From contig JBDKUZ010000007.1 in NCBI GenBank assembly GCA_039679395.1, positions 1-55,190 on the forward strand: 55,190 nucleotides of DNA, in the 5' to 3' direction. Source of the DNA: Methanospirillum sp. GTDB taxonomy: Archaea > Halobacteriota > Methanomicrobia > Methanomicrobiales > Methanospirillaceae. Below are positions 12,746 to 54,303 of the stretch, piece after piece; position 1 is the first letter of the stretch, and the number at the start of each line of letters is the position of its first letter. A program made the position numbers and the translations under genes. The notes below the pieces were generated by a model. That model did no database searches, had not been told where the DNA came from, and saw only the letters and a list, made by a program, of their open reading frames with translations.

Positions 12746-13438
12746 ATGACGATCGTACTGGAGAGACCGTACGTGATCAGCTACGTCGCGGTCAGCCTGG
12801 ACGGGCGGCTCGACGGGTTCGAGCCGGACCTCGAGCGATACTACGGGATCGCGGCGCGGTTCGAGGTCGATGCAATCCTCTCGGGCTCGGAGACCTCGGT
12901 CGTCGCGATCGAGCGATACAGTGGTCTCGAGAACGTGTACGACGACGGCCCAGCGCCCGCGCGTGCACCTCCCGGCGACCCTCGCCCGCTCCTCGCGATC
13001 GTGGACGGGCGCGGACGTGTCCGCCGCTGGTCGATCTTCCAGGAGGCTCCGTACTGGGGGCGGTGGGTCGCTCTCGTCACGACGGGGGTGCCTGTCGGGC
13101 ACCGGGAGTACCTGGCCTCGCGGAACGTGGACGTCCTGGAGTGCGGAGGCGAGCATGTCGACCTCGCATGCTCGCTCGAACTGCTCGCCAGGGAGTACGG
13201 CGTGCGTCGTATCCGTGTCGATGCGGGCGGGCGGCTGAACGGCGCGCTCCTTCGCGCCGGGCTCGTGGACGAGGTCCACCTCCTCGTCTGCCCCTGGCTC
13301 TCGGGCGGCACGAGCCCGCGGTCATCGTTCGTGGCGGACGACCTGGCGCCCGGCGCTCCGGGGACGAGGCTCGAGCGCACGGCGGTCGAGCCATTCGAGG
13401 ATGGGGCCGTGCTCCTCTCCTACCGGATCGGCCGGTGA
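12746..13438 (+). CDS. RibD C-terminal domain / dihydrofolate-reductase-like reductase
   Basis: ORF 12746..13438. It reads YVISYVAVSLDGRL....VDAILSGSET....IRVDAGGRLNGALLRAGLVDEVHLLVCPWLSGG. Confidence 0.8.
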   Translation: MTIVLERPYVISYVAVSLDGRLDGFEPDLERYYGIAARFEVDAILSGSETSVVAIERYSGLENVYDDGPAPARAPPGDPRPLLAIVDGRGRVRRWSIFQEAPYWGRWVALVTTGVPVGHREYLASRNVDVLECGGEHVDLACSLELLAREYGVRRIRVDAGGRLNGALLRAGLVDEVHLLVCPWLSGGTSPRSSFVADDLAPGAPGTRLERTAVEPFEDGAVLLSYRIGR

Positions 13439-14226: not shown

Positions 14227-14723
14227 CGGAGCACCAGGCACTCGACCGCGCCCGTGGCCGTGTCCAGGATCGCGGCCGTCGGATCCGGCGCGAGGATGCC
14301 TGCGGCCGTGCCCGGGTTGACCACGAGGGTCCGGCCGTGCCGCTCGCTCCCGGCCCGGTGGGAATGGCCGCGGACCACGTAGTCGAAGCCCTGCGAGGCC
14401 ACGAGCGCGTCGAGAAGCTCGCGCTGGTGCCCGTGGAGGAGGGCGATCACGGTCCCGTCGGCCTCGATCCGCGCGAAGTCGCCGCGCAGCTCGCAGCGGT
14501 CCTGCTCCGCGAAGCGCTCGGCGAGAAGCGCATGGTCGCCGTCGTTGTTCCCGAGAACCCCGACCAGCGGGGCATGGAGGCCTCCGAGCCAGGCGACGGT
14601 GAACGGCGAGACGTAGTCGCCGGCGTGGAGGACGAGGTCGAGGTCCGCGCGGTTGAACCGGGCGACGGCGGCCTCGATCTGCCGCTGCTGGTCGTGGGTG
14701 TCCGAGATGATCCCGATCCGCAT
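14223..14723 (-). CDS. MJ0936/YfcE-family metallophosphoesterase
   Basis: This is the internal start MRIGIISDTHD of ORF 14223..14873. Motifs in order: DTHD, HAGDY, GNNDG, LHGH, GHSH. Confidence 0.85.
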   Translation of the reverse strand: MRIGIISDTHDQQRQIEAAVARFNRADLDLVLHAGDYVSPFTVAWLGGLHAPLVGVLGNNDGDHALLAERFAEQDRCELRGDFARIEADGTVIALLHGHQRELLDALVASQGFDYVVRGHSHRAGSERHGRTLVVNPGTAAGILAPDPTAAILDTATGAVECLVLR

Positions 14724-15330: not shown

Positions 15331-17070
15331 ATGGTTCAGCGTAGGTTCAAACAAACAGGCATCGTGTTTGCGCTGTTGATACTCTGCGGCGCCGCGCTCG
15401 TGAACCCCGCCCTGGGTGGGGCGATAGTCAATTGGGGAGACACAGGCTCATCGGTGCCGTCGGGCACCGATTTCACTGCCATTGCGGCCGATGGTTGGGA
15501 TGGCCTCGCGCTGCGTGCCGACGGGTCGCTCGTCCACTGGGGGGGTGATTACCCCGGAGGATCAGGTACGCCATCGGGCACCGATTTTACTGCCGTTGCG
15601 ATAGGAAGCGGTTATAGCCTCGCGCTGCGTGCCGATGGCTCAATCGTCGCATGGGGTGTGGATGACTACACTCACATAATATCGGATGCGCCGTCGGGCA
15701 CCGGGTTCACTGCGATTGCGGCCGGTTACCAGCATGCTCTCGCGCTGCGCGCCGACGGCTCGATCATCAGCTGGGGTGCCGATGGTTGGGGCCAGGTATC
15801 GCAGACACCGACTGATTCCGGATATATTGCCATAGATGGCGGATGCCATCAAAGCCTCGCGCTGCGTGCCGATGGCTCGATCGTCAGCTGGGGCGAGGAT
15901 TACTACGGCCAAGTGTCGGACACACCGACGGGCACCGGGTTCACTGCCATTGCATCCGGTTACGCTCATAATGTCGCGCTGCGTGCCGATGGCTCGATCG
16001 TCAGCTGGGGGTTCGATGTTGCGGGCCAAGTATCGCAGACGCCGACGGACGCTGGGTATATTGCCGTTTCGGCCGGCGGCCTCGGTATGCATAGCCTCGC
16101 GCTGCGTGCCGACGGCTCGATCGTCAGCTGGGGATCTGATAGGTTTGGCCAGGTATCGCAGACGCCGACAAACGTCGGGTTCACGGCCATCGCTGCTGGT
16201 GACGATGGCAACCTCGCGCTGCAATCCGATACCACGTCGCCCACGCTCACCGCCACGGTCCCCGCGAACGGTGCCACGAACGTCCCGGTGAGCACGGGGA
16301 TCACGGGCACGTGGAGCGAGCCCGTCACGGTCTATCCGCCGCGCATCGCGGTGACAACAGCGGGTGGAACGGAGATCGCCTACCTCGGCACGTGGGATGC
16401 GACCGGTTTCGCCGTCACGCCGAACGATCCGTTGCCGAAGGAAACGGTCATCACCGTCAGCGTGAAGGGAGTAACCGACCTCGCAGGGCACCTGCAGGAC
16501 CCCAATCCATCCACCTGGTCGTTCACGACAGCGGCCAACCAGCGGCCGGTGGCGAGCCTGACGGCCGTTCCGTCCAAGGACCTGGCGCCGCTGGCGGTCA
16601 CGTTCTCGACCGCCGGAACGGGAGATAGCGACGGCGGCATCAGCACCTGGGCGCTGGCCATCACCCAGCTGGGGGTCTCCGCGACCGGGTCGGGCACTCC
16701 GCCGGGCACCTTCGACTACACCTTCACCGAGCCGGGCACGTACACTGCCACTCTGACCGTGACGGACACGGACGGCGCGACGGCGACCGCAACCGTGGAC
16801 GTCGTCGCTCAGACGCTCATGGAACACGTCGCCGACCTGAAACCGGTGATCCGTCAGATCCCCATGCTGTCGCTTGACATTCAGACGGGGCTGTTCGACA
16901 AGCTGGACCAGGCAGAACTCAGCCTGAACAGTGGCAGCGACAAAGCGGCCGTTAGCCAACTGACCGCATTCGTCAACCAGGTGAAGGGGCTGCAGAAAGC
17001 GAAAAAGCTGACTGCCGCTCAGGCCACGGCGCTTATCACCGAGGCACAGGAGATCATCGCGGCGATCTAA
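15331..17070 (+). CDS. secreted RCC1-repeat beta-propeller protein with Big_5/SbsA-type Ig domain, PKD domain and helical tail
   Basis: This is the internal start MVQRRFKQTGIVFALLILCGAALV of ORF 15244..17070. It has seven ALRADGS(I/L)V(S/H/A)WG blades, then TSPTLTATVPANGATNVP.. (Ig-like), then LAVTFSTAGTGDSDG..YTATLTVTDTDGATATATVDV (PKD). The C-terminal helical AAVSQLTAFVNQVKGLQKAKKLTAAQA segment is tentatively FIMAH-like. Confidence 0.85.
   Translation: MVQRRFKQTGIVFALLILCGAALVNPALGGAIVNWGDTGSSVPSGTDFTAIAADGWDGLALRADGSLVHWGGDYPGGSGTPSGTDFTAVAIGSGYSLALRADGSIVAWGVDDYTHIISDAPSGTGFTAIAAGYQHALALRADGSIISWGADGWGQVSQTPTDSGYIAIDGGCHQSLALRADGSIVSWGEDYYGQVSDTPTGTGFTAIASGYAHNVALRADGSIVSWGFDVAGQVSQTPTDAGYIAVSAGGLGMHSLALRADGSIVSWGSDRFGQVSQTPTNVGFTAIAAGDDGNLALQSDTTSPTLTATVPANGATNVPVSTGITGTWSEPVTVYPPRIAVTTAGGTEIAYLGTWDATGFAVTPNDPLPKETVITVSVKGVTDLAGHLQDPNPSTWSFTTAANQRPVASLTAVPSKDLAPLAVTFSTAGTGDSDGGISTWALAITQLGVSATGSGTPPGTFDYTFTEPGTYTATLTVTDTDGATATATVDVVAQTLMEHVADLKPVIRQIPMLSLDIQTGLFDKLDQAELSLNSGSDKAAVSQLTAFVNQVKGLQKAKKLTAAQATALITEAQEIIAAI
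15418..16234 (+). repeat. seven tandem ~150-nt coding repeats (RCC1 blades) with near-identical DNA cores
   Basis: ctcgcgctgcgtgccgatggctcgatcgtcagctgggg recurs almost unchanged. This explains the long in-phase antisense ORFs 15640..17160 and 15966..16328. Confidence 0.8.
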
Positions 17071-28373: not shown

Positions 28374-31300
28374 TCAGCCGAGCTCGACCTCGACCTCGTG
28401 CGGCCGCTGGTCGTTGACCAGGTGGACCGCGTGGTCCTGCTGCTCGACCCCGTCGACCACGACCGACCGGACGCCGCACGCGAGCGTGCTTGAGCGGATC
28501 GTGCAGCGATACACCGTCTCCTTGAACCGGTACCGGAGCACGAACCGGTCCCACCCCGGCGGCAGGCAGGGGGCGAAGCGGAGGGTGTCCACGTCGAACC
28601 GCAACCCGATCAGCGATTCGAGCAGCAGCTGGTACGACCAACCGGCCGCGCCCGTCATCCATGTCCAGCCGCCGCGTCCGACGTGCGGCTCGACCCCGTA
28701 GACGTCGGCCGCGATTACGTACGGCTCGACGCGGTAGGTCGCGATCGCATCTCGGCTCTGCCCGTGATGGATGGGGTTGATGAGGTCGAAGAGCCGCCAG
28801 GCCAGGTCACGGTCGCCCAACGCCGCGTGGGCCATGATCGTCCAGATCGCCGCATGGGTGTACTGGCCCCCGTTCTCGCGGACGCCGGGAACGTAGCCCT
28901 GGATGTACCCCGGCGACGGAACCGCGTGGTCGAACGGCGGGGTGAGCAGTTTGATCAGGCCCTCGTCGTACCGGACCAGTTGCCGGTCGACCGCGTCCAT
29001 GGCCGATCGGGCACGCGCTGTTCCGGCCGCGCCGGAGAGTACGGACCACGACTGGGCGATCGCGTCGATCCGGCACTCCTCGTTCTCGGCCGAACCGAGC
29101 GGCGTCCCGTCGTCGAAGTAGGCGCGGCGATACCACTCGCCGTCCCACCCGGCCTTCTCCAGGTTCGCCGCGAGGCGCGAGGCCTCGGCCACGCAGCGCT
29201 CGGCAAAGGCCTCGTCCCCACGCGCCCTCGCCACGCCCGAGAACTGGAGCAGGACCGTGTAGAGGAAGAACCCGAGCCAGACCGACTCGCCCCGGCCCTG
29301 GATCCCGACCATGTTCATCCCGTCATTCCAGTCGCCCGAGCCCATCAGCGGCAGGCCGTGGGCGCCGAAGCGGAGGCCGTACTCGATCGCCCGGACGCAG
29401 TGCTCGTAGAGTGTCCCCTGCTGCTCCGAGATGGTCGGCAGGTCGTAGTAGGACTCCTCGTCCGGCTTGAGCTGCCGCCCCTCGAGGTAGCGAACGCGTT
29501 CGGAGAGGACCCCCGTGTCCCGGGTCGAGAGGACGTACCGGCAGAGCGTGTAGGGCAGCCAGAGGTAGTCGTCGGAGCAGCGCGTCCGCACCCCACGGTC
29601 GGACGGCGGGTGCCACCAGTGCTGGACGTCGCCCTCGACGAACTGGTGGCCGGCCGAGAGCAGGAGGTGCTGCCGGATCAGCCGGGGCTCGGCGTGGAGC
29701 AGGGCCAGCACGTCCTGGAGCTGGTCGCGGAAGCCGAACGCCCCGCCCGACTGGTAGTACCCCGAACGCCCCCAGAGGCGCGAGGAGATCACCTGGTAGA
29801 GGAGCCAGCCGTTGACCAGGAGGTCCACGGATCGGTCGGGGGTCTCGATCGCGACCGAGGAGAGGGTCCAGTCCCAGTACCGCCGGACGGACTCGAGCGA
29901 GGCGCGGGCCGGAGCCACGCCCCGGTGCCGCTGGACCAAGGCCTTCGCCTCGTCCGCGTCCCGGCCGACGCCGAGCATGAAGACGACGTCGAGATCCTGG
30001 CCGTCCGCGAGCTCGAGGGGGACCTGGAGCGCGGCGCACGGGTCGAGCGCAGCGCCCACCCGGCCGGAGAGCCGGACCCGCTCCATGGCCGCGGGCCGTG
30101 CGAGCGTCCCGTTGCGTCCCACGAACTCGTGCCGGTCGCCCGTCGCCGTCCGGTTCAGTTCATTCACGTCGAAGAAGGCCACACGGTCGGGAAACTCGGT
30201 GTTGTACGAGTTGCGGGCAAGGATGGCCCCGGTCAGCGGGTCCATCTCCGTCACCACCTGCATCGCCGTCGCGGCGCGGAGCTGCCCGAGCACCCACTCG
30301 ACGTACCCGGTCACGGTGACCGACCGCGTCCGGCCTGAGCGGTTCCGGACCCGGACCTGCCAGAACTTGACAGGGGCGTCGACCGCGACATGGACGGTCA
30401 TGGTGGCAAAGAGACCGTCCTGGGCGTGCTCGAAGACCGAGTAGCCGAACCCGTGCCGGGTCAGGTACGTCCCCGGCCCGCGCGCCGGCAGGGGAGCGAG
30501 GGACCAGAACGCGCCCGTCTCCTCGTCCCGCAGGTAGAAGGCCTCCCCAGCCCGGTCCGTCACCGGGTCGTTCCACCAGGGGGTGAGCCGGAACTCGTGC
30601 GCGTTCTCGGACCAGGAGTATCCGCCGCCGCTCTCGGAGACGATCGAGCCGAAGGACGGGTTCGCGAGAACGTTGACCCACGGCGCAGGCGTGAACTGGC
30701 CGGGCCGGTTCTCGATCACGTACTCGCGCCCGTCCTTGGAGAAACCGCCGATCCCGTTGTAGTAATCGAGCGCCTCGCCGCCGGACGGGGTCTCGGTCGA
30801 GGTCGACGGGCGCGGACGCGTCGGCACGAGCCTCGGTATCTGCGGGTCGATCCACCGCACCCGCTCGACCTGCTCGGCGAGGGGGCCGTCGCGATCGGCC
30901 AGGATCACCCGGGCCAGGGCCTGCATCAGGACCCGGTCCTCCTCCGGGATCTGGTCGAGCCGCCGGACGAAGACCCCGCCGGGCCTATCGATCAGCTGGG
31001 GGTCGGGACCGAGGCTGGTCTGGCGGATCAGCTCGTCCGTCAGATCTTGCCGGTATCCCGAGATGTCCTCGTTCCAGAAAAGCAGGTCCGTGATCAGCCC
31101 CTTCCGGCGCCAGTACGCGTGTGCCTGGATCATCTGCCGGACCAGCCCGACCCGGGCCTTCTCGGAGACCCGGACCAGCACGAGCGGGTAGTCGCCCGAG
31201 ATCCCGTAGCCCCAGAGCCCGCTCTGGCCGCGCCGGTTCCGCGCGATGACGTCGGGCGGCGCGCGGCGGGCCGGGTTCGGGTAGATGATGGCCGATGCGA

Positions 31301-34300
31301 GCCGGGCGAAGATCTGCGCGTCCGCCTCGGTCGCGTTGAGCTGGCGGAGCATCACCTGCGTGTGCGTCCAGGCGAGTTCGGTCACGCGGTCGCCCATGTA
31401 TCGGTCCTGGTACTTCTCGACGAGCCCGAGTGCGTGGTCGCGGTTCTCGCCGACGCCGAGGTAGACGTGGACGGTCACCGTCTCCTGTGGCTGTATCAGG
31501 ACCGTGCGCCGCACGGCCACGATCGGGTCGAGGACCGAGCCCGCCGTGTCCGAGAGGGAGGACGAGTCGACCATCGCCACCGGGTTCGCGAGCGACCGCC
31601 CCCGGCCGATGAACCGCGACCGGTCGGTCTCGAACGAGGTCTCCCGGACAGGGACGCCATCCACGACCATGGTATGGATGAGCCAGGGGGGGTGCTCGCC
31701 CGAGGAGCGCGGGCGGCGTGTCGCGAGGATCGCGTTCCGGTCGGGGAGGAGCTCGGTCGTTACGAAGAGGTTCGAGAAGGCCGGGTGGGCCGCGTCGTGC
31801 CCGAGGGGGGCGATCACGACCTCGGCGTAGCTCGTCAGCTCGATCGTGCGCGGGCGCCAGGAGCGGTTCGTGATCCGGACGCGCCTGAGCTCGACGTCGT
31901 CCTCGGGCGAGACCATGCACTCGGTGTGGATGTCGAGCTCGTCGTCGCGCCGCCGGAACTCGGCCCGGGCCTGCTGGAAGATCGCCTCGTACTTTTCGGC
32001 CGGCTGGAGCGTGGGCTGGTAGCAGGTCGACCAGAAGCGCCCGCTCTCGACATCGCGGATATAGCAGAAGACGCCGTAGCCGTCGGAGACGGGGTCCTCG
32101 CGCCAGCGCGTCACCTCGAGGTCGCGCCAGCGCGAGTACCCGGCCCCGGCATTGTTGACCATCACGTGGTACCGGCCGTTCGAGAGGAGGTGGACCTCGG
32201 GCCGGGCCAGATCCGGCGTCGAGAAGATCCGCATCATGGACTCGCCCTCGGCGCCGCGCCGGACCTGGCCGTCCATGCGGATCGCGTGGGGATAGAACGG
32301 GGTCACCTTCGGCACCCGCTCCTGGAGCAGCAGGTCGGTGGCGCGGATCTCGGGCACGCCCAGGAACCGCCGCTGCATGGGCCGATCGGCGAGCACAGCG
32401 AGGAGCGAGAGAAACGACATCCCCAGGTGGTGGGACATGAACGACCGGACGACGGCGACCTCCTGGCCGCGCGCCAGCCGCGACGGCGTGTAGTCGGCGG
32501 CCTCGAAGAAGCCGTACCGCCCCGCGAAGCCGACGGTCTCCATGGTCTGCAGGTTGCTGGTCGCCTCGGACGGAAGGACCAGCAGGGCGAGCGCGGTCGC
32601 GTACGGCGCGACCACCAGGTCCTCGCCGAGGCCCCGCTTGTACCCGAGCCCGGGGACACCGAAGGCCCGGTACTGGTAGTTCAGGTTGGCGTCGGTCAGG
32701 TTGTACACCGACTCGGAGATCCCCCAAGGCACGCCACGCTGCTTGCCGTACTCAATCTGCCGCCGCACGGCCGCGCGGCAGGTCTGGTCGAGGAGAGTCT
32801 CGGGGTAGCTCGGCATCACCAGCAGGGGCATCAGGTACTCGAACATCGAGCCCGACCACGAGAGGAGGAGCGGGCCGGCTCCGCTCGAGGTGAGCTGGCG
32901 GCCGAGCGCGAACCAGTGGGCCTGCGGGAGCACGCCGTCGGCGATCCCGACGAACGAGGCGAGGCGCGCCTCGGAGGCGAGCAGGTCGTAGAACGAGGTG
33001 TCCCGCCGGAGCTCGGAGACGTTGTACCCGATCGCGAGCAGATCCCTCGCGGGGTCGAAGAGGAAGTCCGTGTCGACATCGATGAAGCCCGTCGCGTGGG
33101 CGCCGACCCGCTCGTACAGGTCGAGCAGGCGCCCGGCGCCGGCGGCCGCGCTCCGCAGCCGCTCCCTCAGTCCCATCAGGGCCGCGCCCTCGTCGTTTCC
33201 GGACGCCATCATCCGCGTGAGGAGGCGGTCGATAGCGGGCAGGAGATCAGCGTGGAGCTCCCGGACCCCGATCGGGCTGGGGGCTTCGCCGTCGCAGGCC
33301 GCGAGCGCAGCCTGGACCACGGCCGCATCCTCGGGTCCGGCCGCCGCGACGCGGTCCCAGAACGCGCGGTCGCGCGGGATCTCGGCCCACCAGCCGATGA
33401 GCTCGCGGACGTACTCGTCGAGGTTGTGGACCTCGACCTCGAGCGCCTGCGCCCACCATCGGACCTCGTCGTCGGCGTTCGACCGGAGGTCCCCCGCGAT
33501 CTGCGCGATTGCAGTTGCCGCGTCGGCCAGGACTGCATGCCGCTCCGCGAATGTCGGGGCCGGGACGGCCAGCAGCGCTTGGAGAGACGCGATCCGCGCC
33601 GCGATACCGGGGGAGACGTACGAGCTCTCGTCCCGGTCGACGTCGGTCCGCGCCGCGGCGAGCGCCAGCTCGCGGGCCGTGTCCGCGAGGCCGTTGAGCG
33701 CGGCGGGTGGAAGAACGGGCGCGTACCCGAGCTCGGCCATGCCGGCCCTGAGCGGGAGGAGGAGACCGATCAGGTTGCCCGAGTCCACGGTCGAGACATA
33801 GTGCGGCGCGAGCGGGGCGAGGGTGACCGTGTCGTACCAGTTGTAGAGGTGCCCGCGGAATCGCTCGAGCCGCTCCAAGGTCTCGAAGGACTGTTCGAGC
33901 CGCTCGGCGCAGCGCCGCGGGGTGATGTACCCGAGGTCCGCGGCGGCGAGCGTGGAGAGGAGGGCGAGGCCGATATCGGTCGGCGAGGTGCGGTGCGCGA
34001 TCCGCTCGACCGGGGCCTCCTGGTAATTGTCGGGCGGCAGCCAGTTCTCCTCCGGCCCGACGAAGACCTCGAAGAAGCGCCACGTCCGCCGCGCGACCGA
34101 GCGGAGGAACCGGAGCTCGCTCGGGTCCAGGACCGGGACGGGCTCGGCCAGGGGTCGGCTCAGGTACCATGCCACCGCGGGCGAGGCGACCCAGAGGCCG
34201 ATGATCGGGAGGGCCGCCGCCAGCGCCTCGGGCCGGGCGAGGCCGATCGCGAGGCCGGAGACCGCCCCCGCCGCCAGCGCCGGCCACATTCGCCGGTAGT

Positions 34301-37160
34301 GGCCCGCGAGGTCCGGCGCGGTCCGGCCGGCGTCGCGCGACGTGGTCCACTCGAGGAGGCGGCGGCCCCGGACAAGGCGCGAGAGCGTCCGACCGACCGC
34401 GTCAATCGCGACGGCCGCCTCGTACGGGAGGAGGATGAAGAGGAAGACCGGCTGCGCGAACGAACGCGGCAGCGACCGAGCCGCGTCGAGTAGGTGGAGG
34501 CGGAGGCCCTGGTCCCGCGGCTTCTGGACGAGCCGGTAGAGGAAGCCGATGATCGGCGGAGCGAAGACGAGGGCCGCGACGGCCGCCGTCCACCCGATCG
34601 GGTTCGGGAGGAGGAGCCACGCGATCAGGAGCAGGGCCAGCTCGGCCGGTGCTACCAGGCTGCGCCGGAGGTTGTCCAGGACCTTCCAGCGCGAGAGGAG
34701 TGAGAGCGTGTTCCGCCGTCGTTCGTTGCCGGGGGCCGGGACCGTCGGCAGGGCCCAGGCCCCGACCTGCCAGTCGCCGCGGATCCAGCGGTGGCGGCGC
34801 GCGACGTCGGCGAGGTACCGCAGGGGGTAGTCCTCGAAGAGCGTGACGTCGGTCACGAGCGCCACCCGGGCGTACGAGCCCTCGATCAGGTCGTGGGAGA
34901 GGACGCGGTTCTCGGGGAGCTGCTCCCCCAGGGTCGCGCCGAACGCCTCGAGGTCGTACAGCCCCTTGCCGATGAACGAGGCCTCCTTGAAGGTGTCCTG
35001 GTAGACATCCGAGACCGCGCGTGTGTACGGATCGATGCCGGGCTCGCCGCCGAAGACCCGGACGTACCACGACCGGGCAGAGTCGGTCAGGGTCAGGCCG
35101 ATCCGCGGCTGGAGCACGCCGTAACCGGCCACCACGCGCCCGAGGACCGGGTCCACCACGGGCCGGTTGAGCGGGTGCGCGGCTGTCCCGACGAGCTTCT
35201 TCGCCTCGTCGCGGGGCAGCTCGGTGTCGGCGTCGAGGGTGATGACGTACCGCGTCCCTTCGAGGGTCGCGAGATCGCCGACGATCACGGCGAAGGGGTC
35301 GGTCTCTCCGTGGATCAGCAGCCGGTTCAGGGCCTCGATCGCGCCGCGCTTCCGCTCATATCCCATGAACCGCCCCTCGCGCGGGTTCCACTGCCGGGGC
35401 CGGTGCAGGAGCAGGAACGGACTCCGCCCCCCCTCGGCCACGTACCGGGAGTTCAGCTCCTCCGTGCCCGCCACGGCCCGGGCGATCGTCTCCGCGTCCT
35501 GCGGCGCGACCTCGCTCTCGGCGGCCGGCAGGTCCGAGAGGAGGGCGAACGAGAGCTGGGGGTCGCGGTTGCCGAGGTACCGCACCTCCAGCATCTCGAG
35601 CAGCCGGTCCACGTCGTCGGGCGTCGAGATCACGGTCGGGACCACCACAAGGGTCCGGCACTCGAGCGGGATCCCGTCGTCGAAGTCGAGCCGCGGCAGG
35701 ATCTTCGGCTTGGCGATCAGCATCGCGACCCAGTTGACGAGTGAGACTGCGGTCTGGCTCGCGGCCAGGAGAAGGACCGGGACGAAGAGCGCGAGCACCG
35801 CCAGCCCGACGCCCGCCATGGCGGCCGAGACGCCCCCGGCGAGCGTGATCAGGCCGGCGATCGCCGCGATCCCGCCGAGGTAGAACGGCAGGGGGGCCTG
35901 CCGCCCTATCCGCCTGAACCGCTCCGCGTTCGGCGGTTCGAAACGGACCGTGTGCTGGAGCTCGGGAAGCCCCCGGTCGATCAGGAAGTACCCGACGTGA
36001 GCCGAACGGTCGGCGCCGCCGAGCCGCATGCGCCTATCCACCGCGAGCTCCATGGCCCGCCGCGCCACTTCCTCCTCCGAGAGAGGGGCGTGCCGGGCCA
36101 GGCGCTCGACTACGTGCCTGTACCGGTCGCGGGTCGCGAAGTCCATGGCCGCGTACGGGTCCTGCGGGTTCGACCGCAGCACACTCTCCACGACCGAGAG
36201 TCGCTCGACGAAGACGCGCCAGTCGATCCCGTCGAGGGTCCTAAGCGAGGTGATCGAGTTGCCGATCGAGACCTGGTCCGCTGCCTGCGCCCGGGTCTCC
36301 ATCTGGACCATCTGCTCGATGGTCAGGCTCATCTCGGAGAGCCGCTGCTCGATCCAGGTCAGGGCCAGGGTCAGGACCGGCGAGCGACCTCGGAGCTGCC
36401 GCGCCAGCTCGGCCACGAAGGCGCTGGTCATGGGCGGGTCCGAGCGGGCCATCTCGGCCACGACCAGGATCATACTCTTCGGGTCCTGCTCGGCCACCTC
36501 GATCATCCGGTCGGCCCAGACCGAGGCGTTGTCCGAGTCGACCCTGTTTGCGCCGATCCGGGTCGAGACCCGGCGCAGGTTCTCGATCAGGGCCAGCCGG
36601 AGCATGATCGGGACGGCCCAGAGCTCGCCGAGCTGGAGCGGCGCGACCGTCTGGTATGCTTCGACGAACGCGGAGAGGACGTCGAGGTCGATCCGCCCGT
36701 CGTTGTGCGCGATCAGCTCGCGGGCGATGAAGTAGACGCGGGGGTACCCGGCGAGCGGGCCGTTCTCGAGGCGCGGGAGCTTCCGGCTGTACCCGAGCGG
36801 GAGGTGGCGGCGGGCCGTCCGGACATGCTCCTCGACCAGGTAAAAGTTGTCGAGGAGCCACTCGCCCGCGGGCGCGATCCGGCGATTCTTCTCGAGCGCG
36901 GCCGTGATGAGCGTGAAGGTCTCGACCAGGATGGTCTCATTCTCGGCGAGACGCGGGAGAAGACGGTCCTCGCCGCCACTCATATCCACACCGTACCAGT
37001 CGGCCATCTCCACGGCATGGGCCGAGAGCTGGTCCGCCGAGAGGAGCTCGCTCCGGAGGGGCTGGACGTCCTTCGGTCTGGCCCCTGCGGTACTCACATC
37101 CGTCACGCGCTCACGAAGGCGGGTCACGTCCCGCCGCAGCGACTCGATGCCGTCCTTCAC
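28374..37160 (-). CDS. cyclic beta-1,2-glucan synthase-like giant enzyme (membrane GT84 glycosyltransferase + central glucan-processing region + C-terminal GH94 phosphorylase), 2928 aa
   Basis: ORF 28374..37160. The N-terminal region reads [35 protein letters not shown] helices precede a GT-A domain (VVVPTVI...[21 protein letters not shown]...[10 protein letters not shown]). The mid region reads WGISESVYN...[17 protein letters not shown]. The C-terminus reads [12 protein letters not shown]...[20 protein letters not shown]...SGDWNDGMN, as in GH94 cellobiose/glucan phosphorylases. Confidence 0.9.
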
Positions 37161-38498: not shown

Positions 38499-40088
38499 AT
38501 GAATCTACGAACACCGAACACCAACGAGGCCGTCGGGACCTCGAACCGGTCCCGCGACGTCTCGCCCACCTCGGGCATCTGCACGCGCTGCGTGGACGGA
38601 TGCCGCGGGGCCTGCGAGATCTGGCTCTCGTCCTTCCGCGGCCGCGAGGTTCTCTACCCCGGCCCCTTCGGCGAGATCACGGCCGGCTCGGACAAGCAGT
38701 TTCCCGTCGACTACTCGCACGTAAACATCCAGGGCTACGCGGTCGGCGCCCGGGGTCTGCCCGCGGGCGTCGAGCCGTCGCCCGACACCGCGGTCTTCTC
38801 CGAAGTCGATACCGGGACCGAGTACGGTTGGGACATCAAGGTCCCCATGCGCCTCCCGATCTTCACGGGCGCGCTCGGCTCGACCGAGATCGCGAGGGCG
38901 AACTGGGAGCACTTCGCCATCGGCGCGGCCATCTCGGGGATCACCCTGGTCTGCGGTGAGAACGTCGGCGGGATCGACCCCGGTCTCGTCCGCGACAGCA
39001 ACGGCAAGGTCACGAAGTCGCCGGAGATCGACCGGCGGATCGAGACCTACAGGAAGTTCTACGAGGGCTACGGCGAGATCCTCGTCCAGATGAACGTGGA
39101 GGACACCCGGCTTGGAACCGCGGAATATGTCGCCTCGAAACACAATCTGGACACAATCGAACTGAAATGGGGCCAGGGCGCCAAGTGCATCGGCGGCGAG
39201 ATCAAGGTCCGCGATATCGAGCGCGCCCGCGAGCTGAAGCGGCGCGGCTACATCGTCCTGCCCGACCCCACGGCCAGCGAGAACGAGAAGGCGTTCGCGG
39301 CCGGCAGCATCAAGGAGTTCGAGCGCCACTCGCGCCTCGGCTTCGTCTCGAAGGAGGGCTTCCTCGAGGAGATCGACCGGCTCCGGGACATCGGGTTCAA
39401 GCGGGTCACGCTCAAGACGGGCGCGTACTCCGCGCAGGAGCTCGCGATGGCCATCCGGTTCGGCTCGGAGGCGAAGATCGACCTCCTTACGATCGACGGC
39501 GCCTCGGGCGGCACGGGCATGAGCCCGTGGCCGATGATGAACGAGTGGGGCATCCCGACGTTCTACCTCCAGGCGCTCGCGATGCAGTACAGCGAACTGC
39601 TGACCAAGAAGGGCATGCGCGTACCCGACCTCGCGATCGGCGGCGGCTTCGGCGACGAAGCGAACGTCTTCAAGTCGCTCGCGATGGGCGCGCCGTACGT
39701 CAAGGCCGTCTGCATGGGCCGCGGGCTGATGATCCCCGGGTTCGTCGGGAAGAACATTGGCAAGTGGCTCGAAGCCGGCGATCTGCCCAAGGGCGTGGCG
39801 AAGTACGGCTCGACGGTGGAGGAGATCTTCGTCAGCTACGAAGCCCTCAAGGAGAAGTTCGGCGACCGTATGAACGAGATCCCGCTCGGCGCGGTCGGCA
39901 TCTACACCTACGCCCAGCGGTTCAAGACCGGGCTGCAGCAGCTGATGGCGGGCAGCCGGAACTTCTCGCTCAAGACAGTCTCGCGAAAGGACGTCTTCGC
40001 GCTCTCGGAAGAGGCCGCGAAGGTCTCGGGCCTGCCGTACGTGATGGACGCGTACAAGGACGAGGCGCTCGGCATTCTGCTGGACTGA
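38499..40088 (+). CDS. FMN-binding glutamate synthase family protein (GltB FMN-domain homolog) with N-terminal Cys cluster
   Basis: ORF 38499..40088. It reads CTRCVDGCRGAC, ELKWGQGAK, TIDGASGGTGMSPW, GGGF...LAMGA. This is the standalone GltS_FMN domain architecture common in archaea. Confidence 0.9.
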   Translation: MNLRTPNTNEAVGTSNRSRDVSPTSGICTRCVDGCRGACEIWLSSFRGREVLYPGPFGEITAGSDKQFPVDYSHVNIQGYAVGARGLPAGVEPSPDTAVFSEVDTGTEYGWDIKVPMRLPIFTGALGSTEIARANWEHFAIGAAISGITLVCGENVGGIDPGLVRDSNGKVTKSPEIDRRIETYRKFYEGYGEILVQMNVEDTRLGTAEYVASKHNLDTIELKWGQGAKCIGGEIKVRDIERARELKRRGYIVLPDPTASENEKAFAAGSIKEFERHSRLGFVSKEGFLEEIDRLRDIGFKRVTLKTGAYSAQELAMAIRFGSEAKIDLLTIDGASGGTGMSPWPMMNEWGIPTFYLQALAMQYSELLTKKGMRVPDLAIGGGFGDEANVFKSLAMGAPYVKAVCMGRGLMIPGFVGKNIGKWLEAGDLPKGVAKYGSTVEEIFVSYEALKEKFGDRMNEIPLGAVGIYTYAQRFKTGLQQLMAGSRNFSLKTVSRKDVFALSEEAAKVSGLPYVMDAYKDEALGILLD

Positions 40089-46235: not shown

Positions 46236-46748
46236 CCGGGCCGGCCCCGGCCATTCTCTTCTTTCGTCCCGGCGGCGGGCCGTCATCGCGCCGTTCCGAC
46301 GGGACCGTCGGCGGGCGATTCGCTGCCGGCGACACGATCCCGTTCAGAGAGATGTGCGAAAAGACCGAGCCCGCGATGGAGCGATCTCGAACGCGGCCGG
46401 CGCCTTCAGGACCGGCGGCGGATTTCCGTTCGGATACAGGAGACGCGGGCGGCGAGCCCCGCCCGTCTCCCCGCCCGGCACGCACCGGGCCTCCCCAGAA
46501 ATTGTTCTCTCACCGGACGTCCGCGCCGGGCCGGGCCGCCCTCACGCCCCGGTACGGCCGGACCCCGAGCCGTCGCAGGATTCCGACGATGAGGAACCCC
46601 ACGACGGAGCCGATCCCGAGCAGGGGATCCATTCACGCGAGCGCCGGGACGGCGTCCGCCCATCGCTCTCGATCCGGTGCTCGAAGGTCGCGCCGGCCCC
46701 CCGGGAGCTCTGCCCGGCCGAACGCCCGGAAGAGGCGGGTGCGGAGGG

Positions 46749-47711
46749 CTATCTCAGTCCGGCGGCCCACCGCGCGGCGGGATACCACCGGATGAACGAG
46801 CCGCTCGACGGCGGTGCGATCCCGAACGAGATACGGCCGGGCCTGAGGACCGTGCCGTTGACCATGACCGTCTGCGATCCCGGCCCGGCGGTCACGTTCC
46901 CCGCCCCGAACCGGCCGGCCAGGAACGTCCCGGGCTTCCCGATCGCGTACCGCTTCCCTCCCGGCGTCGGCTTCACACCCGGGGCGATCGTCCACGAGGT
47001 CCCGATCGGGCTCACGGGAGCGACGAGGGGCAGCAGCAACGGGCGCGGGGTCCCCGTGGGAAGGGGGGCGATCAGCGGCGGCCGGGGGATGGGCAGCGTC
47101 GTCGGCACCGTCGTCGGCAGTGTCGTCTGCCCCGGCGCGAGCGTCCGGATCGTCGTCGGGTACGGCGCGATCGGGCCATACGGGCCGTAGGGCGCGCCGC
47201 CCGCCGGCGGCGTGGTGATGTAGGGCGTCGGGAGGGTCGAGCCGGGCGCGTATCCCGGCAGTGTGACCATCGTGACCAGCGGCCTCGTCGTCACGGGCGT
47301 CGGGGGAGGGGTCGGCGCGCCCAGGACGAAACCCCGGGAGTCGGCGATCCTGGTGCCCGTGGCGTTCCGGAGCGTCACGACGTCGTCGCTGCTCGAAGTC
47401 ACCGCGTGATCGGGGCCGCCGCTCCAGTACAGGTCGGTCGCCGAGTTCGTGCCGCGGCCGGAACGGACCGCGACGTACTTCCCGGAACCGAGCGTGAAGC
47501 CCGGGAAGGTGTACGTGGCCGTGGTCCGTTCGTCCGTGAGCGTCCAGCCCGTCATGTCGACGGGGTCCAGGCCGATGTTCACGATGGTGACGATCTCGTT
47601 CGGGACGCTGATGTGCGCTATCCCGACGAGGCCGGCGGCCGGGGCGGCCAGCAGGAGGAGGGCGACGCCGATCAGGGGGATCGCGAGCGGTCTCATGCAG
47701 TGGATCATCAT
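46749..47711 (-). CDS. secreted lamin-tail-domain (LTD) protein with long Pro/Thr-rich C-terminal region
   Basis: This is the internal start MMIHCMRPLAIPLIGVALLLLAAPAAG of ORF 46749..47927 (47696 is also possible). The LTD signature reads NEIVTIVNIGLDPVDMTGWTLTD...YTFPGFTLGSGKYVAV...DDVVTLRNATGTRIAD. Confidence 0.75.
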   Translation of the reverse strand: MMIHCMRPLAIPLIGVALLLLAAPAAGLVGIAHISVPNEIVTIVNIGLDPVDMTGWTLTDERTTATYTFPGFTLGSGKYVAVRSGRGTNSATDLYWSGGPDHAVTSSSDDVVTLRNATGTRIADSRGFVLGAPTPPPTPVTTRPLVTMVTLPGYAPGSTLPTPYITTPPAGGAPYGPYGPIAPYPTTIRTLAPGQTTLPTTVPTTLPIPRPPLIAPLPTGTPRPLLLPLVAPVSPIGTSWTIAPGVKPTPGGKRYAIGKPGTFLAGRFGAGNVTAGPGSQTVMVNGTVLRPGRISFGIAPPSSGSFIRWYPAARWAAGLR

Positions 47712-48333
47712 GGGCCGGGTATTTACGGGTGCCGATATTGTTGTACCATCGATAATCGAGAAGGGAACGACGGCGTTTGCAGTCGCCCGGGCGGGAGCGG
47801 GGGCGTGGCGATGAGAGCGATGTGCCGGCGATGACGGGCTCCTTAAGGGTATACCTCCTTGAGAAGAAGGTGCGGGAGGAATATTGGTGCATTTATTGAA
47901 GTTCATCGGCGTATGGAAGAGATTCAATGAAAGCGGCTAATCGAGCGGGCGGAGAACGACTGAGCGCGCTACCCCTTACACCACGGCCGTCTCTTCAGCC
48001 TCCACCACCCTTCTCGACCCCCACCGGCCGCACATCTCGCAGAGCCGGACCCCCAGCCCGACCACGCGGCCCGTTCGAGCCCGCAAAGCCCGCACCGCGA
48101 ACCGCCTCCGTCGCCGTGTCCGTGTCGAAGAAGGACCGTGGCGGGAGTCGGCCCGATCGTCCGCCAAATCGTCGACCCCCGATCGTCCGCACGTTCGCCG
48201 CTCTCCGGATACAATCGGCTACACTACCTCGATACGACAAAATCGAAATACATAAACCGGGCCCGGGCCGAGGAACTCTGCGGAACGGGACCGGTCCGGC
48301 GCCGGGGACCATCGGCCGAGACGGGAGTGCTGG

Positions 48334-49265: not shown

Positions 49266-49787
49266 ATGGAAAAGGACGAGATCGAAACCGGAAGATCGGC
49301 GGCGTTGCGATCGCTCGTGGTCGTCTGCTCGTACCATCACGGGAATACGGAGAAGATCGCCCGCGCCATCGCGGAGGTGCTCGGCGCGCCGGTAACGACC
49401 CCGCAGCAGGCGACGCCCGAGAAGATCGCGGAGTGCGACCTGGTCGGTTTCGGCTCGGGGATCTACAGCGCGACAGTCCATCCATCCCTCCTCGACCTCG
49501 CCGACCGGCTTTCGCGGGCCGAGAACAAAAAAGCCTTCCTCTTCTCGACCTACGGGGCCCCCGCCGTCGCTGCGGGCGGGGATTTTGTTGCAAAGAACCA
49601 CTCGCGGATCCGGGAGAAGCTCCAGGCGAAGGGGTACGCGGTCATCGGCGAGTTCGGGTGCGCGGGGTGGAACACGAACAGTTTTCTGAAGTATTTCGGG
49701 GGGCTGAACAAAGGCCGGCCCGGCGCCGAAGACCTCGGACACGCGGAAGCGTTTGCCAGGGATATGATGGAGAAAGCCCGAGGATAG
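49266..49787 (+). CDS. flavodoxin-family protein
   Basis: This is the internal start MEKDEIETGRSAALRSLVVVCSYHHGNTEKIA of track ORF 48888..49787. It also reads LVGFGSGIY and FLFSTYG. Confidence 0.85.
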   Translation: MEKDEIETGRSAALRSLVVVCSYHHGNTEKIARAIAEVLGAPVTTPQQATPEKIAECDLVGFGSGIYSATVHPSLLDLADRLSRAENKKAFLFSTYGAPAVAAGGDFVAKNHSRIREKLQAKGYAVIGEFGCAGWNTNSFLKYFGGLNKGRPGAEDLGHAEAFARDMMEKARG

Positions 49788-51257: not shown

Positions 51258-52928
51258 ATGACACGGAAGTACCTGTTCTATCTGGCGTTTGCCATGATCG
51301 TGATCAGCCTCACAGGCGTCCTGCCGGTGGCCGCCGCCGGCATCTCGGACGTGAGCCCCCGGGAGGGGACCGTGGGCTCCGCGGTGACCATCTCCGGTTC
51401 AGGCTTCGGCGCGAAGACGGGGGAGGTCCTGCTGGGGAGCGAGAAATGCAGAGTGCAGGACTGGAGCGACACCCGGATCGTGTGCACCGTATCGAAACCG
51501 CAGTCCCCCGGGGACTACACCGTCACGGTCCTGGCCCAGGGAAGCAAGAAGCCCGCGGAGCCGATGACGTTCTCCTCGTTCGCCATCCGGGAGCCGGAGA
51601 TCGCGCCGGGGACCCTGACCAGGGACGGCGACACGGTCACGATCGCGGGGGCGTTCTTCGGCGACAAAAAGGGGGACATCCGGCTGGCGTACTATGACGG
51701 CGGGCTCGTGACGGACACTCCCGGGATCCTGGACTGGAGCATGAACGCCGTCCGCTTCAGGCTCCCCCAGGGGCTGACCGGGAGGTTCGCCCTGAAGGTC
51801 GAGAACGATGTCGGGGCGGACTACGCGCTCTTCGATCTCGCCAACAACCCGCCGGTGGTGGGATCGATCCCCGATCCCACGGGATACGGCGGGTACCATT
51901 CCAGTGCGAACGCCAGGGGGATCGCCTACAACGGCCGGATGTACGTCTTCTCCCTCTGGTTCAAGGACAACCCCTCGTTCAGCGAGCGCGACAACCAGTA
52001 TCTCATCCAGGTCCGGACGTTCAAGGACCACCAGCTCTCGGGCGCCCAGACCCTGTGGGGAGGGAAGTCCGAGGCCGAACCCGTGCCGCTGATCGTCCAG
52101 TACCCCGACGGCGGGCCGCAGAAGATGTTCGTCTTCGTGACGGGCCGGAACGGGAACATCTACTTCACGCGGCTGAACGGCGACGTCTGGGAGGACGCCG
52201 ACTGGATAAAGATCGTCGATGTCGCGACGGGCGGGGTCCCCACGACCAGCGAGAACACCTACGAGGTGGCGCCGGTGTACGACCCGGCGAACCACCGGCT
52301 CTACGTCTACTACGCGAAGGACTACAACGATTACCTCCACTGGGCGTACAGCGACGACTTCGGGAACACCTGGCACGCCATGGGGACAGTCCAGAATGCG
52401 CCCGTGGTGCGGTCCGCGCCGAGTGCCGTGCTCTTCAACGACGGGTCCGGCAGTGTCGCGCTCCTGGCGGCCAAGGATTCCAACCAGAAGATCAGGCTCT
52501 TCCACATGGGCCAGGGCTGGGCCATCAGGACAGAGGTCCTGGCGACTACGGACGACGTGGGTGGCCAGGGGAGGCCGTTCCTGGCGGACCTCGGCCCCGA
52601 CGGCATCGCGGTGATCTACGGGGAGCACCAGAAGGCGTCGGGCAGCATCTACGAGCAGTATTATGTGCCCCACATCAGGAAGCTGGACCCGTCGACGGGC
52701 GTATGGGGTGCGGAGTACCAGCCGATGTCGCTGCCTGACGTCTTCGGGGTCGGCCGGGAGTACCAGTTCGAATGGCAGCCCAACGGGGCGATCAACTACG
52801 AGCCGAACGACAGCGGCGGGTACGACCGCGTCTTCTACCTCTTCTTCGGATACCGCCTGATCCTCTGGTCCGACGGCGAGGACGGCCCATGGTGGGAGTT
52901 TGCCGCCGTCGAGAACCTGGGCCCCTGA
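51258..52928 (+). CDS. secreted protein with two IPT/TIG domains and a BNR/sialidase-like beta-propeller
   Basis: This is the internal start MTRKYLFYLAFAMIVISLTGVLPVAAA of ORF 50886..52928. The IPT domain reads ISDVSPREGTVGSAVTISGSGFGAKTGEVLLG...RIVCTV. A second IPT-like unit follows. The Asp-box is YSDDFGNTW. Confidence 0.85.
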   Translation: MTRKYLFYLAFAMIVISLTGVLPVAAAGISDVSPREGTVGSAVTISGSGFGAKTGEVLLGSEKCRVQDWSDTRIVCTVSKPQSPGDYTVTVLAQGSKKPAEPMTFSSFAIREPEIAPGTLTRDGDTVTIAGAFFGDKKGDIRLAYYDGGLVTDTPGILDWSMNAVRFRLPQGLTGRFALKVENDVGADYALFDLANNPPVVGSIPDPTGYGGYHSSANARGIAYNGRMYVFSLWFKDNPSFSERDNQYLIQVRTFKDHQLSGAQTLWGGKSEAEPVPLIVQYPDGGPQKMFVFVTGRNGNIYFTRLNGDVWEDADWIKIVDVATGGVPTTSENTYEVAPVYDPANHRLYVYYAKDYNDYLHWAYSDDFGNTWHAMGTVQNAPVVRSAPSAVLFNDGSGSVALLAAKDSNQKIRLFHMGQGWAIRTEVLATTDDVGGQGRPFLADLGPDGIAVIYGEHQKASGSIYEQYYVPHIRKLDPSTGVWGAEYQPMSLPDVFGVGREYQFEWQPNGAINYEPNDSGGYDRVFYLFFGYRLILWSDGEDGPWWEFAAVENLGP

Positions 52929-52966
52929 TGGGGTGGGCCCCTGACGGGGCGGGGTCCTGACGGGGG
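52919..52966 (+). repeat. three tandem 16-bp repeats spanning the stop codon of the IPT/BNR gene
   Basis: The units are gggcccctgatggggt / gggcccctgacggggc / ggggtcctgacggggg. Each carries a TGA (52926, 52942, 52958), and because the period is 16 nt the three TGAs fall in all three plus-strand frames. Confidence 0.6.
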
Positions 52967-52991
52967 CGGCCCCCCTCAGGGCCATCTTTTT
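52956..52991 (+). terminator. GC hairpin plus T5 tract downstream of the IPT/BNR gene
   Basis: CCTGA-c-GGGGG cgg CCCCC-c-TCAGG (5+5 bp with one mismatch, 52956-52980), followed by T5 at 52987-52991. Confidence 0.45.
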
Positions 52992-53049: not shown

Positions 53050-54170
53050 TGATGAGATCGCGATCGTCGCGGCGGCCCGGCCCGCTGCTCGCGCCGCACG
53101 GCCGCGCCGTAGCAGCGTCGGCAGAGCCGGCCTTCGCCGCCGCGCTTCTCCCGGTAGGACGACGGCTTCCCGCCGCAGGCCGAGCATCGCTCGAAGGCCG
53201 GGCCGTCGAGCGCGATGAAGGAATGCGGGTCGAGCGAGTGACAACGTTGCAACTTTGAAAGGGCAGTTGTCACCGTGGTTGTCACATCGGTTGTCACTTC
53301 ATTCGCGGCCGCATCGGCGTCAGATACGCCGTTCCGATTATTTGGTACGAGATCGTACATCTCAGTGACAACTTTTCCGGAGACAGTCCGCACGTCCGGC
53401 ATCGCCTCTCCCACCGTCGCCGTCTCTCTGTTCTCCGAAAAGTTGTCACTTGTTTTTTCGCCGGCGGCGGAACGGGCATCTTTCTCCGTTTCGTGGCCTG
53501 ATTGCCCCGGATTCTGAGTTACAACCGGTGTGACAACCATGTGACAACCATCGTCATCATTGCAACTATCATCGTCGCGGCTCCGGCGATCGTCCGCGAG
53601 CCAGGCGAGACCGGAGGCGCAGGACTCCCGGTGCCGCTCCTCGTCGAAGAGGAAGACGAACTGCCGCTGCTTGACGCTGTGCCCGTTCTCGTCGTCCTCC
53701 GTTGTCGTGGTATCGAGAACGGAGAGCGCCGGGGATTTGTCGAGCAAGCCCGGGTACTGCATCCCCCGCGCGAACCGGCCGACGAGCAGCCGGCGGACCT
53801 TCTGATACGACCACCCGGTCCACTGCTGCACATGGCGGAGGGTGAACTGCTCCACCCCGTTCCGCGCCGCGAGCGAGAGGACGAACTCCTCGTTCCGGTC
53901 CACCTTCTCCCCCAGCGATCCGCCGCCGCCGTGAAGCTCGGAAAAGAGCCGCGCCGCGTACCGGAAATCGTCCTCCGTCGCCGTCACCAGCAGCCCGTCG
54001 TCCCCGAGCCGCTCGCACGCGCGCTGGAAGCGGCGGACGAGCGCGTGGCCGGCGACGAGGTCGAGGAGGACCTCGGGGGTGCGGCGGTTGCGGACCGAGG
54101 CCATGCGGATGCGGCCGGCGAACGGGATGTCGACGTGGACCAGGCCGTCGGCCCGGAGCAGGCGCCACAT
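53050..54170 (-). pseudogene. orphan winged-helix + zinc-ribbon ORF, apparently 5'-truncated and lacking its own stop codon (mobile-element replication/regulatory gene remnant?)
   Basis: This is the upstream third of track ORF 51399..54170. It reads MWRLLRADGLVHVDIPFAGR...FTLRHVQQWTGWSYQKVRRLLVGRF (wHTH-like), then an acidic/Thr-rich linker, then CHSLDPH...CSACGG...CRRCYG. An in-frame stop lies 29 codons upstream of the ATG. Downstream, the frame runs antisense through the whole IPT/BNR gene, so the 3' limit is arbitrary. Confidence 0.4.
53238..53548. repeat. iteron-like array: 8 perfect + 1 variant copies of GTTGTCAC / GTGACAAC in near-dyad arrangement
   Basis: Plus-orientation GTTGTCAC copies lie at 53266, 53278, 53290 and 53442. 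Reverse-orientation GTGACAAC copies lie at 53238, 53365, 53530 and 53541, with a GTTACAAC variant at 53518. The two triplets have 11-12-nt periods and face each other. The inner gaps are 67, 69 and 68 nt. Confidence 0.8.
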
Positions 54171-54303
54171 CTCGCGGCAGATGGCGAGGTCGATGCCATC
54201 GGTCGCGCCGCCGCGTCCGTCGATCCCGGATAGCCCGGCCCTGTCGGTGACCGCTCCGAATCAAATCGAACAGGTTATCGTCGCAGCCGTTCCGATCAGG
54301 GGT

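Follow-up and report, generated by a model that had tools for sequence, protein, structure and literature searches.

Why should a broken gene in ordinary chromosomal DNA hold nine copies of one 8-bp box, one of them imperfect, set out in facing groups within 311 nt? The question is raised by a 55,190-nt stretch of Methanospirillum sp. DNA (GenBank assembly GCA_039679395.1, contig JBDKUZ010000007.1, positions 1 to 55,190; hereafter the window), in which the word GTTGTCAC and its reverse complement form an array at 53238-53548. An earlier reading made from the letters of the window (the sequence-only reading) had proposed that the array is the replication origin or master operator of a decayed, possibly still functional, integrated element. 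To place it in context, the DNA of relatives was fetched from metagenome-assembled genomes (MAGs) and metagenomes, giving about 20 loci (L numbers below), mostly from Methanoregulaceae/Methanomicrobiales. The array proves to lie in a remnant of a replication protein (rep) gene, and its layout is conserved among relatives in which the boxes themselves differ. We consider it probable that arrays of this kind are initiator-site arrays, most likely the replication origin, of a Methanomicrobiales plasmid or provirus replicon, carried within the replicon's own rep gene.

An ordered array of 8-bp boxes

Eight perfect boxes and a ninth with one mismatch (GTTACAAC as read on the plus strand) stand where the sequence-only reading had placed them (Table 1), and re-measurement returned the same gaps between them (20, 12, 12, 67, 69, 68, 12 and 11 nt). 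The window contains a single other perfect copy, at 16351. When the two variants flanking the array are included, 328 nt hold eight perfect, one near-perfect and two variant boxes. Dinucleotide shuffles of the window gave 0.84 copies of GTTGTCAC per window (maximum four), or about 0.005 per 311 nt. One-mismatch versions were not enriched across the window (22 found, 25.8 expected), so that GTTGTCAC is no generally over-represented word in the available 55 kb; the sequence-only reading had called for a count across the genome. The array is also lower in G+C than its surroundings: positions 53238-53565 have 53.7%, and the parts of the open reading frame (ORF) on either side have 70.6-76.8%.

Table 1. 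Coordinates of the box array and of the rep remnant in the window (L numbers are loci of relatives; P0004 is a homologous protein).
Feature	Position	Strand	Remarks
Outer box GTTGTCAC	53238..53245	-	Last box in gene orientation; equivalents in L003, L011, L013, L001 and L004
Palindromic variant GTTGCAAC	53246..53253	.	Abuts the outer box; GTTGCAAC is the main box form of the closest relative, L015
Three-box cluster, 12-nt period (53266, 53278, 53290)	53266..53297	+	Minus strand encodes VTTDVTTTVTT
Lower-G+C patch (44-48% G+C) beside the 53365 box	53327..53362	.	Dyad GTACGATCTCGTAC; candidate unwinding stretch
Single box	53365..53372	-	Pairs with the region of the 53442 box in a 23-nt inverted repeat
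Single box	53442..53449	+	A/T runs on either side; the 30-mer poorest in G+C within the array (33%) begins at 53429
Three-box cluster (53518 variant GTTGTAAC, 53530, 53541), spaced 12 and 11 nt	53518..53548	-	Encodes GCHMVVTPVVT
Degenerate outer box ATTGCAAC	53558..53565	.	Counterpart is GTTGCAAC in L015, L017 and L006
rep gene remnant	53070..54228	-	Matches P0004 residues ~255-637; end of ATPase module, winged helix, linker, first zinc ribbon
Winged helix of remnant	53778-53846	-	
First zinc ribbon of remnant	53112-53186	-	
Displaced, frameshifted rep 3' end (second zinc ribbon)	48030..48110	-	~5 kb off; ADH and TIG-domain genes between

The array lies in the remnant of a replication protein gene

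The array occupies the linker-coding DNA of a minus-strand rep remnant. Over the end of the ATPase, the winged helix and the first zinc ribbon, the remnant matches the homologous proteins P0001-P0009 with E = 1e-137 to 1e-62, and it shares 84% nucleotide identity over 1,121 nt with its closest relative, L015. The winged-helix/zinc-ribbon ORF in which the sequence-only reading had set the array is the C-terminal third of a primase-polymerase/helicase replication protein, which makes an origin or initiator site the natural interpretation. Searches of the rep fragment against Pfam gave one sub-threshold match of the zinc ribbon to DUF7685, and PHROGs, NCBIfam and a PDB sequence search gave none.

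The protein family to which the host gene of the array belongs is a family of replication proteins. Its intact members have ~1,040-1,070 amino acids (aa) and carry a primase-polymerase, an MCM-like AAA+ ATPase, a winged helix, a disordered linker and two zinc ribbons; the ORF of L015 (>861 aa) shows AEP primase-polymerase motifs (DSGNGGH, NAARIWKCYGT..KGD), a zinc motif, a P-loop ATPase, the winged helix, a variable linker and both zinc ribbons. The AEP primase motifs are also present in the consensus A2, a match to LigD Prim-Pol was weak, and P0029 has an NrS-1 pol helix-bundle domain. The closest solved structures to the ATPase and winged-helix core are MCM helicases (E = 6e-8), the closest viral models are primase-helicases, and the ATPase module is 25-29% identical to that of bacterial plasmid primases. 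In the AlphaFold model of P0004, confidence (pLDDT) exceeds 90 at residues 60-470 and 580-690 and drops to ~32 at 480-574, and this segment, which is predicted to be disordered, is exactly the one that the array encodes.

The family comprises 1,782 representatives at E <= 1e-3, typically of ~1,000 aa, and homologs carry the Pfam domain PF27228, named after an ORF of plasmid pME2001/pMTBMA4. Distant members occur in mobile-element contexts, including operons like those of mobile genetic elements, a tailed provirus with a tail tape-measure gene, and a locus with a faint integrase match. No relative was found among IMG/VR viral contigs. Apparently intact rep genes are present in L007 (4102-7320; 1,072 aa) and L016 (1640-4759; 1,039 aa).

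The copy in the window is a rearranged pseudogene fragment of this family in ordinary chromosomal DNA. Relative to P0004 it lacks the first ~255 codons, and its 3' end is displaced and frameshifted (Table 1); no primase or ATPase part or Walker motif was found anywhere in the window, nor any second rep copy apart from the displaced 3' fragment. The minus-strand frame is nevertheless open from about 54262 and meets no stop until 51399, which is due solely to its antisense course through a TIG-domain gene of high G+C. Having lost its primase and ATPase parts and with its 3' end 5 kb away, this copy can yield no functional Rep and is unable to fire alone. The description of the element as decayed therefore holds, and its possible function narrows to action in trans: as a relic, the array would depend for any activity on a matching Rep from elsewhere.

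A similar displacement was seen in L004, where the 3' zinc-ribbon part of a decayed rep copy (12977-13060 and 14587-14691) lies 1.3-2.9 kb downstream. Together the two cases hint that breaks near the array or the rep 3' end recur.

A conserved layout with lineage-specific boxes

Every close relative and four of five distant relatives have an array at the equivalent position in the gene (L001-L007, L010, L011, L013-L021, L024 and L025). In gene orientation the plan is an outer box, a cluster of three boxes with an 11-12-nt period, a single box in the opposite orientation, a second single box, an inverted cluster of three or four boxes, and another outer box; close relatives have full boxes at the positions of the window's GTTGCAAC and ATTGCAAC flanking variants. 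Start-to-start spacings are 76/77/75 nt in eight loci (the window, L015, L017, L006, L001, L003, L013 and L005), with 78/79/78 in L011, 75/66/77 in L010 and 76/89/75 in L021. Spacer identity between clades, measured without gaps, is only 28-54%, yet each box falls at exactly the same nucleotide position. A G+C minimum of ~35 nt beside one single box recurs in 13 loci, with a mean of 39-45% G+C against 57-76% around it.

The box word itself changes from lineage to lineage, with more than 10 types over the ~20 loci, and within each locus of 2-22 kb it is essentially confined to the array. The window has GTTGTCAC, L001 GTGGCAAC, L003 and L011 GCTGTAAC, L013, L014 and L016 GCTGTCAC, L004 and L018 TGCCAGCA/TGCCGGCA, L002 and L010 TGTTGACA, L005 TTTGGAAA, L007 GTGATGAA, L020 TGTTGCAA, L021 TTCTGCAG, L024 TGTTGTAA and L025 AACTGATCCA. 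Such lineage specificity is reminiscent of specificity or incompatibility groups. In the window's own clade (86% identity) individual boxes switch among GTTGTCAC, GTTGCAAC and GTGACAAC, so that a box consists of two half-sites (GTTG or GTGA) that are exchanged while the motif is kept; some boxes elsewhere are perfect palindromes (TGCCGGCA).

Four features of the array indicate that selection acts on the DNA, as the sequence-only reading had held. First, the boxes fall in several frames and on both strands, being read in the minus-strand ORF not only as GCH, VVT and VTT, the cases given earlier, but also as SDN and RCH. Second, they impose codons that are rare in this genome (GTT, ACA, TGT and AGT make up 2.9%, 5.1%, 3.4% and 2.6% of their codon families) and lower the G+C content of third codon positions, which is 0.919 in host genes and 0.929 elsewhere in the remnant but 0.545 within the array. 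Third, homologs place a different 8-mer at exactly the same nucleotide positions, so that the peptide repeats differ in each; this is the opposite of one peptide encoded by different codons, the pattern that would mark selection on the protein. Fourth, the peptide that the array encodes is a predicted disordered linker. We give next to no credence to the idea that the repeats reflect selection for a peptide repeat, chance or a word common throughout the genome: the 12-nt period does keep the frame, and the clusters do yield four-residue peptide repeats, but the four features above contradict this, and the window holds nine perfect copies of the word against 0.84 expected, eight of them within 311 nt. 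A test for tripeptide recurrence in 39 family linkers, a weak proxy that missed known positives, was significant at p <= 0.01 in 15.

Nor does the conserved symmetry appear to serve the structure of a nucleic acid. The dyads could form a nested hairpin in the rep mRNA, or a fold in single-stranded DNA or a cruciform, with the differences between loci being compensatory; the strand indeed folds far better than shuffled versions of it (-77.9 kcal/mol, z = -5.8), and inverted partners within a locus always carry the same box. A stem, however, does not need the direct repeats of the clusters or one 8-mer common to all stems of a locus, and many boxes are themselves self-complementary palindromes (GTTGCAAC, TGCCGGCA). 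In most loci the mirrored spacers are complementary at chance level, which confines the dyad symmetry to the boxes, and one partner has often degenerated with no compensating change in the other, as seen for the later of the two single boxes in L016, L004 and L018 and for one box of a cluster in L013. These observations favour protein sites over a long stem, and make the structural explanation very unlikely.

Two further classes of repeat can be set aside. A miniature inverted-repeat transposable element, the terminal inverted repeats of a transposon and a CRISPR-like array are all rejected: the window and every other locus have one copy of the array each, always in frame and at an unchanging codon-level position of one gene, and the 8-bp boxes run in both orientations.

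A candidate origin within the rep gene

What, then, reads the boxes? The only gene always linked to the array encodes a replication protein. This linkage, the facing clusters, the less stable stretch between them, a helicase and primase contained in one protein, and the parallels for an intragenic position (below) lead us to infer an initiator-site array that is probably an origin. Rep would bind the 8-bp quasi-palindromic boxes through their GTTG or GTGA half-sites, and each inverted cluster, its boxes recurring every 11-12 bp, would nucleate a helicase assembly, the two assemblies pointing in opposite directions. Between the clusters, the pair of single boxes at intervals of 76/77/75 nt may organise the ~230 bp of DNA; melting would begin in the lower-G+C patch beside a single box, after which the primase-polymerase domain would prime synthesis.

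Several observations weigh against this proposal. The patch in the window is short and, at 44-48% G+C, only moderately A+T-rich, and the boxes form 8-bp inverted clusters rather than the classical direct tandem iterons of 17-22 bp. The intact genes of L007 and L016 stand singly among host-like surface-protein genes (PKD, NHL, CBM), with no integrase or other element genes on their contigs; most chromosomal copies are decayed, and no circular contig of a mobile, replicating form was seen. One relative, L023, lacks a clear array. L020, a distant family member, has besides its intragenic array six tandem copies of TGTCCGATA with a 9-11-nt period (6156-6217) in the non-coding stretch that follows the rep operon; these could be a second site for Rep or a regulator, or the true origin there. 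pME2001, the one experimentally replicating plasmid that shares PF27228, likewise has its clearest box cluster in non-coding DNA. Finally, the boxes differ among loci in which the recognition helix of the winged helix and the two zinc ribbons hardly vary (the helices of L005 and L003 are near-identical, yet their boxes are TTTGGAAA and GCTGTAAC), so that the reader of the boxes might be another protein.

The non-coding clusters of L020 and pME2001 are what would be expected if Rep bound the intragenic boxes for control only, through autorepression by a transcription roadblock within the gene or through copy-number handcuffing, with the origin elsewhere in the element. That the array lies inside the transcribed rep gene fits such a role as well, and plasmid iterons commonly serve both initiation and control. 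We nevertheless regard control alone as unlikely: none of the loci examined other than L020 has a second repeat array near the rep gene, the intact L007 and L016 genes lack element-like flanks that could house another origin, and inverted clusters facing each other around a lower-G+C patch look more like an initiation site than an operator.

The near-invariance of the DNA-binding modules, in turn, is an argument for a factor other than Rep, whether a partition protein at a centromere-like site, a recombination or resolution enzyme, or a host protein such as Orc1/Cdc6 or a histone in need of phasing. Rearrangement breakpoints lie near the arrays of the window, L014 and L004, and the 67-69-nt spacers have no obvious explanation, both of which could suit such a factor. 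Against this, rep alone is consistently linked to the array, with no conserved adjoining ParA/ParB-like or recombinase gene; the site of a host factor should moreover stay constant among the elements of one MAG, yet L003, L004 and L014, which belong to one MAG, have three box types. We judge a factor other than Rep to be rather improbable, a little more so than a purely regulatory role for Rep, and retain the initiator-site reading in what follows.

Comparison with known origins

The closest parallel for the position of the array is found in bacteriophages. Lambdoid phages differ in iteron sequence. In phage lambda itself, ori-lambda occupies bases 39034-39160 within gene O and consists of four 18-bp iterons and a 38-bp A+T-rich stretch (PMC3349717). 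On our reading the likeness is that repeats bound by an initiator, together with an A+T-richer stretch (a short candidate patch in the arrays), lie within the initiator's own coding sequence between functional domains. The differences are that O is not homologous to the Rep considered here, that lambda has four direct tandem iterons of 18 bp where the arrays have 8-bp boxes in two inverted clusters with two singles at 76/77/75-nt intervals, and that O recruits a separate helicase whereas the Rep family protein carries its own helicase and primase.

Initiators with a helicase of their own are known from staphylococcal pathogenicity islands (SaPIs) and the cassette chromosome SCCmec. PMC7581432 (citing Ubeda 2007) describes SaPI Rep and SCCmec Cch and Cch2 as self-loading MCM- or D5-like initiator helicases, often with a primase, that recognise several element-specific short repeats, probably as two hexamers. 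As in the arrays, the repeats there are physically tied to the helicase gene; in contrast, these elements are bacterial, their origins are non-coding and lie just downstream of the gene, and their repeat layout differs from that of the rep arrays. The plasmid pRN1 offers an archaeal counterpart in domain order, its ORF904 beginning with a primase-polymerase, continuing with an ATPase/helicase and ending in a winged helix (PMC2777425). Its helicase, however, is of superfamily 3 and its essential cis region lies downstream of orf904 (PMC4234260), whereas in the Rep family the ATPase is closest to MCM, zinc ribbons are added at the C terminus and the candidate origin is intragenic.

At archaeal chromosomal origins, inverted origin recognition box (ORB) elements stand on either side of the DNA that is to open, pointing towards each other, an arrangement that fits the two-way loading of an MCM-type helicase. 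The inverted recognition elements of the array would likewise face across a stretch to be opened. The sequence-only reading had drawn this comparison, but it does not extend to identity: the boxes are 8 bp long, intragenic, lineage-specific and linked to a plasmid-type Rep, their variation among lineages fits poorly with a host-wide ORB or mini-ORB consensus, and no orc1/cdc6 gene adjoins the array, which accordingly does not look like an ORB-type chromosomal origin.

A comparison within the methanogens is offered by pME2001/pMTBMA4 of Methanothermobacter marburgensis, a proven replicon that has been used in shuttle vectors (PMC8609365). It shares with the rep loci the PF27228 module and clustered short boxes in inverted groups, but its protein, of 804 aa, has neither primase nor zinc ribbons, the boxes that stand out most (CTGCAGAA-like) are in non-coding DNA, and those inside the gene form a weak set. 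The non-coding boxes, about eight in inverted groups, lie at 3917-4395 of the plasmid (L022) and have a 7-mer core in common with the intragenic boxes of L021 (TTCTGCA); the weak intragenic boxes, of the form TGGGAAACA, lie past the winged helix at 1711-2046.

Are relic arrays retained?

Arrays that have lost their Rep might be kept by selection, either as decoys or incompatibility determinants that titrate the Rep of related plasmids or viruses entering the cell, or as accessory chromosomal origins fired in trans. Ectopic copies of ori-lambda do block lambda (PMC3349717, PMC4488673), and some arrays have changed less than their surroundings. In orthologous Rep-less remnants of two related MAGs (L013 6299-6672 and L014 5979-6354) the array is the best conserved part, with 4.6% divergence against 11.6% in the adjacent remnant and none of 72 box positions changed; a 4-kb indel between the two begins ~45 nt past the array. 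In the window's clade the array has diverged by 12.8-15.2% and the flanking rep sequence by 15.6-27.1%, and the window's boxes are perfect though the gene is broken, for which gene conversion or a recent date of decay would be explanation enough. In L003 and L011 the relation is reversed (22% in the array, 12.8% in the flank), which speaks against selection on relics. These sequence comparisons are mixed, and we consider retention by selection unlikely.

Implications

Searches of the available literature for intragenic arrays in the Rep family turned up no earlier description. An iteron-like origin tied to its initiator is a known arrangement; what appears to be new is the intragenic site in DNA coding for a disordered linker, the fixed 76/77/75-nt scaffold and the lineage-specific boxes that occupy it. 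The origins of archaeal plasmids and proviruses with primase-polymerase/helicase proteins are largely unmapped, and if the array is an origin, an intact member of ~3.2 kb, such as those of L016 and L007, would amount to a replicon of a single gene that brings its own origin. We know of no replicating vectors for Methanoregulaceae, and the design could supply replicons for methanogens that are without genetic tools. The boxes can be recoded synonymously with no change to the protein, making their function cleanly testable, and the natural series of box variants on a fixed scaffold may serve as a model for how an MCM-like initiator reads and opens DNA. More generally, the array exemplifies a cis-element lodged in the coding region of a disordered linker, and in genome annotation such arrays mark the relics of elements even after the gene has decayed.

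Surroundings of the remnant

Genes for a flavodoxin and for TIG-domain, ADH and LTD proteins neighbour the array, and the wider window holds those for a GH94 glucan synthase-like protein, CDC48, ALDH and similar functions. A tRNA scan of the window found none, and hence no tRNA-linked integration site, and Rfam gave no match over the whole window at the gathering threshold. Around the remnant lie separate pieces of DNA that in relatives are linked to rep, a distribution that argues for rearrangement over simple insertion: positions 49517-49773 are 85.6% identical to L015 5821-6077, there 3.3 kb downstream of rep, and positions 46739-47791, an LTD-domain gene, share 85.7% identity with L003 15722-16787, also downstream of rep in that locus. 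Directly past the stop of the TIG-domain gene, and near the end of rep homology at ~53069, a 16-nt unit, TGGGCCCCTGACGGGG, is repeated 3.5 times at 52918-52973.

Two features of the window stand apart from the array. A minus-strand ORF of 2,928 aa at 28374-37160 combines GH94 supersandwich, catalytic and glucoamylase-like domains and resembles a cyclic beta-1,2-glucan synthase, to our knowledge an unusual protein for a methanogen. At 15739-16169, a repeat with a 117-nt period (3.6 copies) corresponds to RCC1-like repeats in a surface-type protein of 608 aa, and L005 has a gene with a similar 117-nt repeat.

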